Assembly: GCA_041690395.1 (NCBI GenBank)
Contig: JAWLHJ010000005.1
Span: 384,001-448,000 of the forward strand
Direction of reading: 5' to 3'
Length of the DNA: 64,000 nucleotides
DNA from: Longimicrobiales bacterium
GTDB taxonomy: Bacteria > Gemmatimonadota > Gemmatimonadetes > Longimicrobiales > Gaopeijiaceae
The notes beneath the pieces are model-generated. The model had not been told where the DNA came from. It searched no databases and saw only the letters and a list, made by a program, of their open reading frames with translations. Position numbers and translations under genes: made by a program. Shown piece after piece: positions 90 through 5,873 of this stretch. The first letter of the stretch is position 1. The number at the start of each line of letters is the position of its first letter.

Positions 90-118
90 CGGGAACTCCG
101 AGTTATATGACACACGCC
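90..118 (+). mobile_element. Integron-type recombination point (attI-like simple site or end of an upstream attC); 5' boundary of cassette 1
   Basis: CGGGAAC-TCCGA-GTTATATG has inverted AAC/GTT cores with a 5-nt spacer. 102-118 GTTATATGACACACGCC is 16/17 complementary to 1172-1188 GGCGTGCGTCATATAAC after ORF1. Direct repeat CACGCCCCAA at 6-15 and 18-27. Confidence 0.5.
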
Positions 119-136
119 TCGAACGAACGGTTCTGA

Positions 137-1162
137 ATGGCCGATCTACACGCTTGGTGGAAAGGCCGCGAAGGCGAATCGTATTGGCTAGAAGTAACCG
201 ACCGTGAGGATCTCGGAACGAACCTGAAGGCGCCCCAAGAGAACGAGGCAGGTGGGGACTTCTGGAGCTACTCCCTCGTTCGAGAGGTCTCGTCGGGTGA
301 CAGAGTCTTCCACTACGACAGGCCGTCTCAACGCATCATGGCTCGGTCCCGGGCCACTGGTGACGTTTGGGATGACCAGCTCGTGTGGGGCGCACGCGGT
401 ACGTACGCGCGCCAAGCCGGAGTCGAGCCTTATCCGCGGCCAGGATGGTACGCTGGCCTTGAGGGCTTCGAGCATCTCGCGCAGCCACTCGAGCTGGAGG
501 GGATTCGCTCGAAGATGGCTGAGATCCGTCAGGCGTATAGGAACCTGGTCCATCAGGTAGGGTCGCCGCTGTACTTCCCGTTTGAGACCGGGACGAAGCG
601 TCCCACCCGCCCGATGCAGGGCTACCTCTTCAAGCTGCCCCGATTCTTTGTGGAGCTCTTTCCTGAGCTGCACATGGGCATGGACTTGGGAGAGGTCACA
701 ATGGGAAAGAGCGAGGACCAGTTTGGAGCCAGCTACAGACGGGCAGACGAAGAGACATCCGTGGGAGCCTTCGATCCGATGGAGGTTGACCCGGCTGTAG
801 TCGAACGCGGCACTCGGGGTCATGCGATGACCCAGAACGCCTTGGCAGATTATGTCGAGTCTCTCGGCCTCACACCCCGCTCACCCCAACCCGACGAACC
901 GAACTTCGATCTGGCCTGGGAGGCTGGAGACCGAGTCTTTGTTGCGGAAGTGAAGAGCGTGACGAATCGTAACGAAGAGCGGCAGCTTCGGATGGGACTC
1001 GGTCAAGTCCTCCAGTACCGCCACCATTTAGAGATCAAGCTCGGCCGGCCCGTCGTCGCGGTATTGGCTTCAGAGCGACGACCTCCGGCAGGGTGGGTCA
1101 GCCTCTTTGGCTCACTCGGAGTTCTAATCGTTTGGCCCGCAGACTTCACCAAGCTGGGGTGA
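137..1162 (+). CDS. EVE/PUA-like domain fused to PD-(D/E)XK nuclease; candidate modification-dependent (type IV) restriction enzyme
   Basis: N-terminal YW..W-SY-SLVREVSSGDRVFHY...QGYLF resembles the EVE domains of EVE-HNH nucleases. C-terminal PNFDLAW..VAEVKS..GQVLQY gives PD-(D/E)XK plus QxxxY motifs. Confidence 0.65.
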   Translation: MADLHAWWKGREGESYWLEVTDREDLGTNLKAPQENEAGGDFWSYSLVREVSSGDRVFHYDRPSQRIMARSRATGDVWDDQLVWGARGTYARQAGVEPYPRPGWYAGLEGFEHLAQPLELEGIRSKMAEIRQAYRNLVHQVGSPLYFPFETGTKRPTRPMQGYLFKLPRFFVELFPELHMGMDLGEVTMGKSEDQFGASYRRADEETSVGAFDPMEVDPAVVERGTRGHAMTQNALADYVESLGLTPRSPQPDEPNFDLAWEAGDRVFVAEVKSVTNRNEERQLRMGLGQVLQYRHHLEIKLGRPVVAVLASERRPPAGWVSLFGSLGVLIVWPADFTKLG

Positions 1163-1181
1163 TTGGGCATCGGCGTGCGTC

Positions 1182-1266
1182 ATATAACAAGTATGTTTCC
1201 GGCTCCGCTCACTTCGTTCGCTCCGACCTATATGGCCTCGACCGGGTGGACTCTGTACTGTTATCC
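1182..1266 (+). mobile_element. attC-like site 1
   Basis: Starts 19 nt after the ORF1 stop with ATATAAC and ends at GTTATCC. Core TAACAAG..ATG..TTTCCGGCTC..CTC.CTTCGTTCGCTCCGAC.TATATGG is shared with 2845-2900. Arm pairing is imperfect. Confidence 0.55.
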
Positions 1267-1363
1267 ACACTTCGTAGGTTTCAGGAAGACCGACGCGTCT
1301 GGTGGGGCCACTGCCGACGCATCTGAACGCTAGGGAGCCCCTGGACAGGATAGGCCGGCCGGA

Positions 1364-2821
1364 ATGACCGACGGAGAGGAGGCGAAGGGCTGGCGGGTCC
1401 GGGTTCAGCCCACAGAGCTCCCTGTCCCTGATGAAGATCCATTTCGACATGACCTATTGGGACGTCGAGAAGCAGTTGAGGTCCTTTCTGAGCTGCTTTC
1501 CCACATCGAAGGCCCGTGTGTGTTCGCCTTGGACGCACCCTGGGGAACCGGGAAGACCTCTTTCCTGCGCATGTGGTCTGCCCATTTGCGGCAGCTCGGA
1601 TTTGCGGTAGCTGAGTTCAACGCCTGGGAGACTGACTTCACGGGCGAACCCTTTGCGGCATTGACGGCAGAACTCGGACGCTCCCTCACCCGCGATTCCG
1701 GCTCTCGGCTCGAAAAGGCTCTGTCAGGCACGCGGGCGGCGGCGATCCAAGTGCTCAAGTATACCCTACCTGGTGCTATCCGGCTTGCCACGGCGGGTGC
1801 TCTGGATCTCAACCCACTGATCGAGGGCGAGCTAGGATCTGGTTTGGCCGCCTTGGCCGAAGAACAACTACAGCGCTATGAGCAGGCGCGGGATTCCATC
1901 GCGTCCTTTCGAACGGAATTGTCCGGACTTGCTGCAGAAGTCAACAAGGACAGCGCCGGGCATCCACTTGTGATCTTTGTGGACGAACTCGACCGGTGCC
2001 GGCCATCCTATGCGGTAGAGCTTCTTGAGGTCGCAAAGCACCTCTTCTCCGTCGATAACATCATCTTTGTGGTAAGCATCGATCGGCGAGAGTTGGGCCA
2101 CTCGATTCGGGCCATCTACGGCTCAGATTTTGATGCATCTGGGTACCTCCGGCGCTTCTTTGATGTGGACTACGCCCTTCCGGTTCCGGACCGCACAAGG
2201 TTCGTGGAGAGCTTGCTCCAGGGAGGCTCAATCGAGGCGTACTTCGGTCGCACCAAGGACGAAGATGCACGGAGGCTTCGAGAGGTCATCACGAAGATGC
2301 TTTCGTTGCTGCTGGGGGAGTCTTCGGTCGGTCTCCGGCCAATCGCTCAAGGGGTCAACCGGCTCGCACTAGTTCTGGGGTCCTTGCCAGCCGACAAGCG
2401 CATGTTTGCAGTGACAGCAGCCACCTTGGTCATCCTCCGAACTCTGGACCCGATGCTGTACCAAGACCTGGTCTTGGGGAGGAGGTCGGACGCGGAGATC
2501 CTTGACCGGATCTTTGAAGACCCTGCCTTGGAGTTGGTTCGCGGAAAGCATGTGGCGAACCTCTTTGAGGCAACGATCATGGCCGGTGTCACGGAGCTCG
2601 ACCGCCCATCAGCGTTGAAAGAGCGGCTGAAGAAACTTGCCGATCAGGATAAGCCTCCGGGAGGAGAAGACCCGCCCGAGGTGGTTCAGGCCAGAAAGTC
2701 ACTTGGTTACCTGTCGCAGCTTGCTCGGGATGGATTCGACGGGAGTGTCGGATTCCGATACTCGATACGTCGATTGGAACTCCTCTCGCCTGCATTTATT
2801 GGGGCTCGAGAAGACCTGTAG
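1364..2821 (+). CDS. KAP-family P-loop NTPase
   Basis: Walker A APWGTGKTS, FNAWE, Walker B VIFVDELDRCRP and YLRRFFD; no obvious transmembrane insert. Confidence 0.9.
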   Translation: MTDGEEAKGWRVRVQPTELPVPDEDPFRHDLLGRREAVEVLSELLSHIEGPCVFALDAPWGTGKTSFLRMWSAHLRQLGFAVAEFNAWETDFTGEPFAALTAELGRSLTRDSGSRLEKALSGTRAAAIQVLKYTLPGAIRLATAGALDLNPLIEGELGSGLAALAEEQLQRYEQARDSIASFRTELSGLAAEVNKDSAGHPLVIFVDELDRCRPSYAVELLEVAKHLFSVDNIIFVVSIDRRELGHSIRAIYGSDFDASGYLRRFFDVDYALPVPDRTRFVESLLQGGSIEAYFGRTKDEDARRLREVITKMLSLLLGESSVGLRPIAQGVNRLALVLGSLPADKRMFAVTAATLVILRTLDPMLYQDLVLGRRSDAEILDRIFEDPALELVRGKHVANLFEATIMAGVTELDRPSALKERLKKLADQDKPPGGEDPPEVVQARKSLGYLSQLARDGFDGSVGFRYSIRRLELLSPAFIGAREDL

Positions 2822-2844
2822 CGTGTGGATGCGGCGGTTCAACC

Positions 2845-2917
2845 GGATAACAAGGATGTGTTTCCGGCTCTACTCGCTTCGTTCGCTCCGACGTATATGG
2901 TCGAAGCATTGTTGTGG
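2845..2917 (+). mobile_element. attC-like site 2 (possibly damaged on its right side)
   Basis: GGATAAC, 23 nt after the KAP stop, is the exact complement of GTTATCC at 1260 upstream of the KAP gene. It carries the second copy of the ~55-bp core. The next GTT is at 2911. Confidence 0.55.
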
Positions 2918-3092: not shown

Positions 3093-4646
3093 CTAGTCGT
3101 CTTGAGCCGCTTTCTTCTTCGGAGGGGCCTTCTTCCTTCGCGCCACTTTCTCCTTCGGAGCGGCCTTCTTACTCGGCGGCGCTTTCTTCTTTGAAGCGAC
3201 CTTCTTCTTCGGAGCGACCTTCTTCTTCGGAGCGGCCTTCTTCTTTGGAGCGGCCTTCTTCCTTGGCTCTTTGTCTCCGTCAGGGGACGCACCAGCCCCG
3301 GAGCGGATATGCCCGCCGGACTGCGAGCTGCTGTCGGCCGGGGCGAACCTGTCAGCCAGGGCGTGGAACCGTGAATCCTTGCGTATCTCGCGGAACACCG
3401 GCCATTCGTAACACGCCTGATAGTCCAGGTCTCGACCTTCAGTGGCCTCAACGAGGTTCAAGAACGCGTCCGTTTCGTCCAAGAGTGCCAGCCGCACCAG
3501 CTTGAAGGGGGTACTTAACGCCGAATCGTCGAATTCTTCGATTTCCGCTCGGACTTCGTCGAGCCGCCCCTGCCATTTCTTGCACTGCCAGGCGTTCAAG
3601 CGACACACAAGCTTCGTAGCTGCGCTGAGCCGTTTGCTATCCATGCCTTCGCCTGCAACCATCAACGCGTGCGACCACCGCTCCTTCACGAGTAGATCAT
3701 AGACGTGCTCTAACAACATGTTCTCGAACGCCGCGAGGTCTTCCCTCTGGAGCGAGACCCAGGCCGTGAAGTACGCCATAGTACCAAGAAGTTCAAAATG
3801 GTCGAGGGCGTTTTCCACGTACGGCCTATCAATGTCTGCAGGTTGACCGACATCAGCGTCACCGAAGTACCGGGTCACGACCGTCGGGTGCACGTTCTCC
3901 AAGTACCGCCGGGTGATGCGGCCACCAGCGTGCACGACGATATGACGTCGCTGGACAAACTCTTTGAACTCCTCCCAATCTGGTGACAGCCGTTTGAGAT
4001 CGACCCTCACAGAGCTTCCGAGGAACTTCGCCCACTCATCGACAGACTTCATGAGCAAGTCATCTGTCCGTTTCTCAACCAAGAAGTCGATCGCGCCCTC
4101 TACGCTTCCAATCTGCTGGAGATCGGCGAGCGTCAGCGTCGCCTGGGCGGCGCCGAGCGCCTCTGGAGTGCGTGCGTAGTACTGGTGAGCGATGTCAGCG
4201 ATCAATACCTCGAACTGTCCGACGAGCCCAGTCAGCACTGCGCGATAGAGCAACTTCCGCTGGGTTGGACTACCGACCTCAACGCGTCGCCTTACCCGCT
4301 CGAGGATGTCGTGGAAGGCAGTGGCGGACGGACCGGTAAGACGGAGAGACACAGCCTTTGAGGGGCCCACACCATCGTCCCTCTCTTCGTCAGCCTTGTC
4401 TTCGTCCTCGACCTCTCGCCCGGCTAAGGAGCGGAGAGCTCGGATCAGTGCCCCGCGGTCCTCATGGGACAACCCCCCTACGATCTCTGATAGGTGACTG
4501 CTGAACTCGTCAGCCTCACCGGCCTCGAGCTCCTCAATCGACCCGTGGAGGTGTTCGAGGAAGAGGCGAAATGCCTCGATAGAGTATGTGTAGTTGGTGA
4601 ACGCGTTTCTAAAGGACTGGTCAACGGAGGCTAGATCTTCACTCAT
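3093..4646 (-). CDS. HEPN-like (RxxxxH) protein with C-terminal histone-H1-like Lys/Ala/Pro tail
   Basis: LVGQFEVLIADI helix and EFVQRRHIVVHAGG (R-x4-H, 3930-3950); tail KKAAPKKKAAPKKKVAPKKKVASKKK. Confidence 0.6.
   Translation of the reverse strand: MSEDLASVDQSFRNAFTNYTYSIEAFRLFLEHLHGSIEELEAGEADEFSSHLSEIVGGLSHEDRGALIRALRSLAGREVEDEDKADEERDDGVGPSKAVSLRLTGPSATAFHDILERVRRRVEVGSPTQRKLLYRAVLTGLVGQFEVLIADIAHQYYARTPEALGAAQATLTLADLQQIGSVEGAIDFLVEKRTDDLLMKSVDEWAKFLGSSVRVDLKRLSPDWEEFKEFVQRRHIVVHAGGRITRRYLENVHPTVVTRYFGDADVGQPADIDRPYVENALDHFELLGTMAYFTAWVSLQREDLAAFENMLLEHVYDLLVKERWSHALMVAGEGMDSKRLSAATKLVCRLNAWQCKKWQGRLDEVRAEIEEFDDSALSTPFKLVRLALLDETDAFLNLVEATEGRDLDYQACYEWPVFREIRKDSRFHALADRFAPADSSSQSGGHIRSGAGASPDGDKEPRKKAAPKKKAAPKKKVAPKKKVASKKKAPPSKKAAPKEKVARRKKAPPKKKAAQDD
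3105..3260 (-). repeat. Coding tandem repeat (~18-bp unit, KKKAAP)
   Basis: Repeated cttcttcttcggagcg-type units on the plus strand. Confidence 0.85.
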
Positions 4647-4783: not shown

Positions 4784-5770
4784 ATGCGGTGGAGCCGTTC
4801 GGCTCCTACAGACTCCACTTGCTGGGCCGAGGGGGGCGAGCCGGACGAGCTCACCAGGGACGACCGTGGCCGTCGTCGGGCGATCGGATTCTGGATGATG
4901 CTGTCTGCAGATCCGCTGCACGAGGCATGTGAGCGGGTTCGGGAATGGGTGGACGAGCGACGGGAGGGGAGGACGATGGGGGCGATGTTCGAGGATGTGG
5001 GCCTCGCGTGGCGCGGGCTCAGGCGGCCGGGGTTCGCGATGATGGCACTGGTGATTCTCGCCGTGGGATTCGGGTCGGTGATCGCCGTGCACAGCGTGGT
5101 GAAGGGCGTCCTTCTGGACCCACTGCCGGTCCCGGAGCCGGACCGGGTGACGACGCTCTGGCTCGCCGACGGGAGGGGGAGCGGCGCGCGCCTGACCCGG
5201 GGACATCTGCGTGACGCGGAAGGCCTGTCGGAGATCGTCAGCGGCGTGGCGGCGTTCCAGAACGCGAGGGGCGCCCTCGAGGATCCGGCCACCGGTGCGA
5301 CGACCATCCTTTACGGTGCCGCGGTCACGCCGGCCTACATGCGGACCCTCGGCGTCTCGCCCGTCATGGGGCGTGACTTCGATGCCGACGGCTTCGACAT
5401 CGACGCGGAGTCCGCGGTCCTGTTGTCCCACCGCGCTTGGCGTCAGATGTACGGTGAGGATCCGGACGTGGTGGGAGGCCACGTCGTCATGGACAGCACG
5501 TCCGCCGATGAGCAGCAGACGCACCCGGCCCTGCCGGCGACTCGTCGTGACGCGCGAGCGCACCGTGTAGTCCTCCGGCCCACCACCGCGACGGTTGGGC
5601 AGCACGCCCAGGAGCACCGTCAGGCCCAGGGCAAGCGCGCCGAGGGCGGCCACCGGGTCCACCGCCACGTCGGCCAGACGCGGAATCTGGTACGGGTCGT
5701 ATGTCAGCGATGCCGACACCACGCCCGGTACCTCCCGGGCGCATCCACGATGGCCAGACGGTCCTCCCAT
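4784..5770 (+). pseudogene. Truncated and scrambled duplicated ABC permease (MacB/FtsX type)
   Basis: Plus strand gives MFEDVGLAWRGLRRPGFA..LLDPLPVPEPDRV..AVLLSHRAWRQMYGEDPDVVG, breaking at ~5500. Minus strand 5500-5740 encodes internal permease-like pieces (EVPGVVSASLT; IPRLADVAVD..LLGVLP..RVRLLLIGG). Confidence 0.7.
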
Positions 5771-5873
5771 GCCCCGTCCCTACGGGCCGACTGAGCGGGC
5801 CTCCCTTGCCCCTCCCCACCCCCCCGCCCACCTTGGCCGCCTTCCCGCCCAGCCCAAGGAGCTTCGTTCCATC

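Follow-up and report, generated by a model that had tools for sequence, protein, structure and literature searches.

The DNA analysed here (hereafter the window) is a stretch of 64,000 nucleotides from a Longimicrobiales bacterium, positions 384,001-448,000 of contig C5 in a 4.33 Mb draft genome of 7 contigs that is 98% complete. Contigs are written C1, C2, C5, C6 and C7, related genomes G004, G006, G015, G028 and G207, and fetched loci as L followed by a number. The first 4.7 kb of the window are low in GC (57-61%, versus ~69% across the genome) and carry two genes, open reading frame 1 (ORF1) and a KAP P-loop NTPase gene, which an earlier note, made from the sequence alone, had described as an integron-like cassette array with atypical attC-like sites. 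The following features were recognised there:

77-113, + strand: attI-like head, made up of an inverted repeat (77-96), the right half of which serves as left binding arm, a gap of 5 nt, the crossover G102↓T103 and the right arm
102-118, + strand: start arm of the ORF1 cassette, 16/17 complementary to 1172-1188, the mismatch being the A/G of position 11
137-1162, + strand: ORF1, a predicted EVE–PD-(D/E)xK protein (AlphaFold model, Foldseek, invariant residues)
1172-1188, + strand: end arm (R'') of the ORF1 cassette, pairing with 102-118
1186-1331, + strand: site 1, a decayed attC-like site of 146 nt (covariance model and end-to-end alignment with array sites)
parts of site 1: L'' at 1193-1201, side hairpin at 1202-1228, a variable middle, an eroded L' at 1306-1322 and a mutated crossover, GCT, at 1329
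1260-1266, + strand: GTTATCC, within the variable middle of site 1 and no cassette start
1364-2821, + strand: KAP P-loop NTPase of 485 aa (PF07693, E 1.4e-34; PADLOC candidate PDC-S20, E 1e-115)
2845-2984, + strand: end arm and 5' part of site 2, strongly decayed and attC-like, crossover not recognisable, partial model match

Judged from the sequence, the window is a decayed satellite, holding two decayed cassettes of a system whose 49-site array lies elsewhere in the genome. The motifs quoted in the note are all present (at 102, 1172, 1260 and 2845, with the core at 1208 and 2873), and the 16/17 match between the ends of the ORF1 cassette exceeds chance: a single such GTT..AAC pair occurs in 1.7 Mb of non-array genome. 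Furthermore, its sole mismatch is the position-11 A/G typical of the whole site family. The shared core of ~55 bp is also real, but it is not a whole site; it forms the 5' third of a site of 146-154 nt. Against a family covariance model built from 44 array sites, site 1 excluded, site 1 scored 79 bits (E 3.6e-19), and site 2 gave a partial match (23.8 bits, E 3e-4) in which no R' was found. The poor L''/L' pairing that had been remarked on holds for the window copies, which fold no better than shuffled sequence (z 0.39 and 0.27), but the array copies pair well (z -2.3 for an array site). The choice offered in the note between decayed sites and a divergent class thus falls away, both descriptions being right: these are decayed copies of a divergent class.

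Upstream of G102 we found neither an attC 5' half nor an integrase remnant (tblastn, C5 375-389 kb). The register of the window head, TCGG-N-AAY followed by 5 nt and GTT, is that of the attI of its own genome and of G004 and G006, and its 11-nt arm is identical to the attI arm of G028. In addition, a post hoc pattern that was derived from three heads matched the genome only three times, at those same three cassette-cluster heads. We read the window head as a putative secondary attI-like site, located just beyond a 50-nt tRNA-Lys repeat. The C5 cluster as a whole has four sites, 1.4-2.7 kb apart, with no recombinase nearby, and with at least two attC-type sites it counts as a cluster of attC sites lacking an integron-integrase (CALIN); the note had rightly spoken of integron-type cassettes with defence-type genes and no integrase close by. 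A pair of sites at 27-30 kb of C6 (L199) is a further satellite that also begins at an attI-like head, and partial single sites lie at 93 kb of C1 (L201), on C7 (L200) and at 383 kb of C2 (L202).

An nhmmer search of the genome with the core returned 72 matches, 56 of them strong (36 lie at the end of C1 and 13 at that of C2, four on C5, two on C6 and one on C7). In 50 of the 56 the right half is conserved, its G↓TT-type crossover lying at a distance of 146-154 nt from the AAC. C2 breaks within the first part of a 420-nt cassette, and C1 within the site of the same cassette type; because both contig ends break inside this duplicated cassette, the C1 and C2 clusters likely form one 49-site array. 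Its cassettes are co-oriented and shuffled, with duplicates at distant positions, and only three out of 45 match anything in the stretch of the G004 array that was read. The ~420-nt cassette was found at attI, in mid-array and at the contig break, and a ~255-nt cassette without a consistent open reading frame occurs 10 times in the array (L196-L198), most copies being 77-100% alike. The array attI has a conserved left arm, no attC 5' half and a right arm that may resemble the XerD arm of dif; a search of the surroundings of this attI showed no sigma-70-type promoter. A general 11-6-11 Xer-like geometry for attI was ruled out by an arm spacing that ranges from 5 to 7 nt.

The two ends of each array cassette are complementary over 16-17 nt. 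Among 44 consecutive cassettes, including one at a contig end that is misregistered, the own cassette end was matched at 11.1 of the 13 positions 5-17 after G↓TT, versus 5.4 for other pairings, and none of 20,000 permutations reached this value. The comparison set comprised 148 cassettes, taken from 12 of 20 loci with canonical IntI in the same phylum and selected by positions 1-8 and the L stem. Position 11 is always A at the start and G in the reversed end (38/38 distinct cassettes, versus 5/148 canonical ones), so that the bottom strand carries a T·G wobble at this place and the top strand A·C. Positions 12-17 matched at 5.8/6 here versus a mean of 2.2/6 in canonical cassettes, where the match rate is 0.91 at position 9 and only 0.35 at position 14. 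G:T and purine skews aid strand choice in canonical attC (PMC5027507), and the passages on this describe no fixed wobble position.

The fold was analysed on 44 bottom strands, with a structure drawn from the same sequences, a bias in its favour. The sites retain the canonical asymmetric 5/7-nt spacer and a 9-bp L stem that is 99% paired, four of its pairs having changed on both sides (compensatory changes). The whole structure exceeded 500/500 shuffles in paired cells and covariation, and slid controls reached at most 41%. All of the 137 canonical sites, but none of the 44 family sites, have a single bulge within positions 7-10 of the L'' arm, indicating that extrahelical bases are absent from the latter; six bulge calls at 12-13 in family sites mark the branch point. 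A side hairpin takes the place of the bulge, with GAA or GCA loops in 43/44 sites, tandem G·A in 31/44 (G-C instead in 13) and a covarying C-G/G-C/T-A pair. Purine motifs such as GAA loops and tandem G·A stabilise DNA hairpins. Bottom strands of modelled excised circles were more stable than the array form in 41/42 cases and than the top strand in 40/42. None of the family sites of this genome was found by a proxy model built from 44 canonical sites of the same phylum, a model that finds canonical sites outside the set it was built from but misses those of L145 and L159. The first extrahelical base of the canonical sites of the phylum is G on the top strand in 137/137, whereas L148 and L151 have C.

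Six genes of the genome encode PF00589 recombinases, and one of them, on C2, heads the array, ending 227 nt before the G↓TT of the first cassette in the same orientation. Its PF00589 match (E 2e-40) has intact catalytic motifs at residues 300, 326, 392, 415 and 426, and its TIGR02249 score is 213 bits in two stretches, for a cut-off of 265. With 22 residues where VchIntIA has 64, it has no I2 insertion and is colinear with XerA, and the best matches of its AlphaFold model (mean pLDDT 82) are XerA and VchIntIA. The IntI with the specific insertion that the note had expected is thus absent, the recombinase at the main array lacking the insertion. No canonical IntI passed the TIGR02249 cut-off in this genome, although 59 of 151 genomes of the phylum do pass; the remark in the note that integrons are little described in the lineage therefore fits the family (0/16 other genomes) but not the phylum, and Gemmatimonadota are already recorded as integron-bearing (PMC8618304).

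In a quick tree of 91 proteins the array-head recombinase lies outside the 23-row IntI clade (support 100), and the Xer-type genes of the genome group apart from it. Its N-terminal extension belongs to a family of domains, and a profile of 17 of these matched the HARP domain of SMARCAL1 (PDB 4O66; E 5e-5), and this HARP-like profile was found in the N-termini of 14/16 short enzymes (seven of them in the profile), 0/14 sister-clade enzymes and 0/16 canonical ones. HARP is a DNA-junction binder. The sister clade of short recombinases (L023 of G015 and 27 further loci) has neither cassettes nor the HARP-like domain, is present in seven equally scoring copies in G015 and is presumably associated with IS91.

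The class is not confined to this genome, and was seen across genomes and phyla. Generic cassette detectors performed poorly (one was strand-symmetric, which voids its control, one was too strict and one gave chains of two in 53/399 shuffles), and for this reason we relied on homology-defined sites, long chains and a stricter first-cassette test that ignores position 11 and covers loci long enough to be tested. A first cassette followed the short enzyme at 4/6 same-phylum loci and 10/26 others, compared with 0/26 in the sister clade and 0/8 at Xer loci, and position 11 was A/G in 4/4 and 7/10 of the positives, respectively. The site model matched 11 of 61 genomes of the order, the source genome included. 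Ten such loci were fetched: in three, a co-oriented short enzyme lies at the head, at a distance of 108-245 nt upstream, and in the stretch read of the other seven no short enzyme was found, several of these starting at attI-like heads. Chained cassettes at the site-model loci carried A/G in 33/35 cases. Seven genomes of the phylum have a short enzyme 108-256 nt ahead of their first cassette.

Among five relatives with such arrays only G207 has a canonical IntI. Its two canonical arrays gave 10 proxy-model matches and no family-model match, while its short-enzyme array and satellite gave no proxy match and A/G in 13/13 chained cassettes, so that both systems are present there with their site types unmixed in the stretches read. 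At L101 (Calditrichales) a short-type enzyme has position-11-type cassettes on its divergent side and not downstream, and orientation may be variable within the class. The canonical intI genes of the phylum (L166-L185) are co-oriented with their arrays, with chains of at least five cassettes at 12/20 downstream loci, and no arrays were found on the divergent side of these 20 genes. Co-orientation of integrase and array is in itself already known (PMC3607928).

All these data suggest an integron-like system that is run by the adjacent tyrosine recombinase without I2, a reading to which we give a probability of roughly 80%. We do not file it as a canonical integron because the I2, clade and extrahelical-base tests fail, and the array system probably represents a second type of integron, separate from the first. 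In canonical integrons the bottom strand of the folded attC is cut and extrahelical bases prevent an abortive second exchange (PMC4792948). Here, the recombinase would likewise act on folded bottom-strand hairpins. The long own-end stem of the right arm would form in the excised circle only, which would favour integration at G↓TT. The enzyme may read the T at arm position 11, which is present in the attI duplex and in the bottom hairpin (T·G) but not in the top hairpin (A·C); this would provide strand choice without I2. The HARP-like domain could grip the branched left arm; the branch would block an abortive second cleavage and, together with this domain, would replace the contact between bulge and I2. 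We lean slightly towards these mechanistic details (own-end stem, position-11 T and HARP-like grip). The cassettes of the window presumably came in trans and are now likely fixed, because their crossover and L' arm are mutated.

Several results weigh against this integron-like reading. I2 deletion abolishes the activity of IntI1, and I2 is held necessary for bottom-strand recombination of folded attC (PMC7790495). The quick tree places the recombinase in an open region, together with Bacteroidota short enzymes and the cassette-less sister clade. Pfam HARP is the best match for 7/8 of the N-terminal domains, all below the cut-off, and gives no match for the recombinase of this genome itself; moreover, the array-heading enzymes L094 and L088 are without a HARP-like domain. 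Of the 26 other short-enzyme loci, 16 yielded no cassette, and among the 10 that did, two seem spurious. In the inner arm, a further invariant G·T at the corresponding location was observed in this genus only, and the energy bias of the array form towards the bottom strand is weak (28/44, mean -0.4 kcal/mol). The variable arm spacing of attI (5-7 nt across loci) points in the same direction. Finally, no excised circles were seen: sequencing runs shared at most 0.14 of the query words, with no RNA run among those listed, and the contigs that cover sites with other flanks have joints explained by repeats.

Alternatively, the short enzyme could recombine double-stranded arms in the manner of Xer or Cre, the complementarity of cassette ends being a by-product of cassette making and not the substrate. 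Colinearity with the archaeal XerA, the many attI made of two arms around a 5-7-nt spacer and the weak strand bias of the array form would all suit such an enzyme. We nevertheless consider it unlikely, given the compensatory changes in the L stem and side hairpin, the reliance of the side hairpin on purine-only features of the bottom strand (its GAA/GCA loops and tandem G·A) and the asymmetric spacer shared with canonical attC. A very unlikely alternative is that the array works, or once worked, with a canonical IntI that was lost or left unassembled, the short recombinase being a bystander: the genome is a draft in 7 contigs and canonical IntI is common in the phylum, but no IntI was found here or in 4/5 relatives with such arrays, the short enzyme stands just before the first cassette in genome after genome of the phylum, the sites have no extrahelical bases and the canonical arrays of G207 hold canonical sites only.

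The geometry proposed in the note, with short sites of ~55-75 nt and a KAP cassette starting from GTTATCC at 1260, drew on an exact and uncommon 7-nt complement between 1260 and 2845, expected 0.001 times at genome frequency and an estimated ~0.01 times at local GC, and hence somewhat unexpected. However, 1184-1335 aligns as one full-length family site, 1260 falls inside its variable middle and the right boundary is the mutated GCT at 1329, which matches the KAP cassette end at only 4 of the 11 first positions; furthermore, the complement extends no further than 7 nt and departs from the family rule at positions 8 and 11. We regard this geometry as highly improbable. The chance that the copies are a regulatory intergenic repeat, or one like repetitive extragenic palindromes (REP), with no role in recombination, is close to negligible. 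The side hairpin is indeed a small stable palindrome and a few partial copies are isolated (C1 93 kb, C2 383 kb and C7), but 49 of the 56 strong copies belong to one co-oriented array with cassette-specific end complementarity, contrary to the scattered occurrence by which the note would have recognised such a repeat, and distant cassette duplicates and the few cassettes in common with the G004 array likewise speak against such a repeat.

With the integron-like reading preferred, the closest known systems are the sedentary chromosomal integrons, especially the co-oriented ones with an 'inverted integrase' known from Treponema (PMC3607928) and from this phylum. Common to them and the array system are a tyrosine recombinase with a Phage_int_SAM_4 domain and a C-terminal SPLD end, its transcription toward attI, the G↓TT crossover, AAC..GTT sites with a 5/7-nt spacer and an L stem, and mostly one- or two-gene co-oriented cassettes (toxin-antitoxin, GNAT, GyrI/Cass2, defence). 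In contrast to chromosomal integrons, the array enzyme has no I2, lies outside the IntI clade and bears an N-terminal HARP-like domain, whereas its sites have a side hairpin in place of an extrahelical base and 16-17-nt end complementarity with a fixed position-11 wobble. The C5 cluster resembles CALIN (PMC4889954) in having sites without a nearby recombinase while the enzyme is elsewhere in the genome; it departs from CALIN in the non-canonical class of its sites and in the attI-like head of its own with which the window pair begins. XerA, XerC and XerD have the same catalytic-domain length as the array enzyme, which is colinear with XerA (PDB 4A8E), but Xer-type loci head no cassettes (0/8) and their genes group apart.

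Integrons are defined and detected by I2 and by the flipped-out bases of attC, I2 being assumed to allow single-strand recombination (PMC7790495, PMC4889954). Cury et al. judged recombinases near attC but without the IntI region not to be IntI (PMC4889954), and their supplementary list may include members of the class described here. We found no description of this site and enzyme class in a literature search at title level, with most subscription papers outside its reach, and the variant is apparently undescribed. On balance we are inclined to see in it a second, orthogonal integron class that would extend across Gemmatimonadota, Ignavibacteriota and Bacteroidota, with single-stranded hairpins but neither I2 nor extrahelical bases, strand choice by T·G, HARP-like recognition of the junction and its own cassette pool beside canonical integrons, and that may resemble a pre-I2 intermediate between Xer and IntI. 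If it works, a class with neither I2 nor flipped-out bases would overturn the assumption about I2; if true, it would offer the evolutionary intermediates said to be lacking (PMC7790495), and cassette pools including anti-phage genes would be exposed that IntI-based detection would likely miss. In addition, the cassette-specific complementarity over 16-17 nt with one fixed mismatch gives a sharp hint at the way in which cassettes arise, a question that is still open (PMC8618304). As a minor, decayed outpost, the window is of interest for leading to the intact system and to a candidate EVE–PD-(D/E)xK defence enzyme.

This candidate, ORF1, had no match in Pfam, NCBIfam or PADLOC, and a PDB sequence search with its profile returned nothing. 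Its AlphaFold model (pLDDT 87) matched VcaM4I best in Foldseek (E 1.3e-7), followed by EVE/ASCH domains and the nuclease domains of Card1, Can2 and BspD6I, and D258, E271 and K273 are invariant across 53 aligned sequences. From this model we predict an N-terminal EVE domain and a C-terminal PD-(D/E)xK nuclease, which makes ORF1 a candidate defence enzyme. EVE-fused modification-dependent endonucleases (VcaM4I and YenY4I; PMC6765204) share the N-terminal EVE and C-terminal nuclease, those of ORF1 being known by predicted structure alone; ORF1 differs from them in that its nuclease is PD-(D/E)xK and not HNH, and it has no DUF3427 match. PUA-family fusions of this EVE-nuclease kind include modification-dependent restriction enzymes (PMC6765204). 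Among 150 other genomes of the order, ORF1 was found in only one. The KAP gene is a candidate defence-type gene by its PDC-S20 match. Candidate defence systems matched 3/4 C5 cassette genes, versus two SoFic matches among 52 proteins of the main array and tail; carriage of anti-phage genes by integron cassettes has already been published (10.1101/2024.07.02.601719; 10.1101/2024.07.02.601686).

To the left of the window, an island of 58-63% GC (C5 375,114-383,929) extends from a tRNA-Lys to a 50-nt repeat of the 3' end of this tRNA. It carries McrB, McrC, a Dcm-type methyltransferase and Vsr, and also two further cassettes with PADLOC PDC-S08 and PDC-S19 matches; in the C5 region upstream of the window, Rfam found the tRNA alone. 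Within the window, 3093-4646 (- strand) encodes a 517-aa protein with RxxxxH at residue 234, which we take to be HEPN-like, and a lysine-rich repeat tail. It had no Pfam match, an Atlas search returned unnamed clusters only (0.97) and no cassette ends were found around it. Next to it, the start of a MacB-type permease (4784-5794) is broken off at the edge of the low-GC island.

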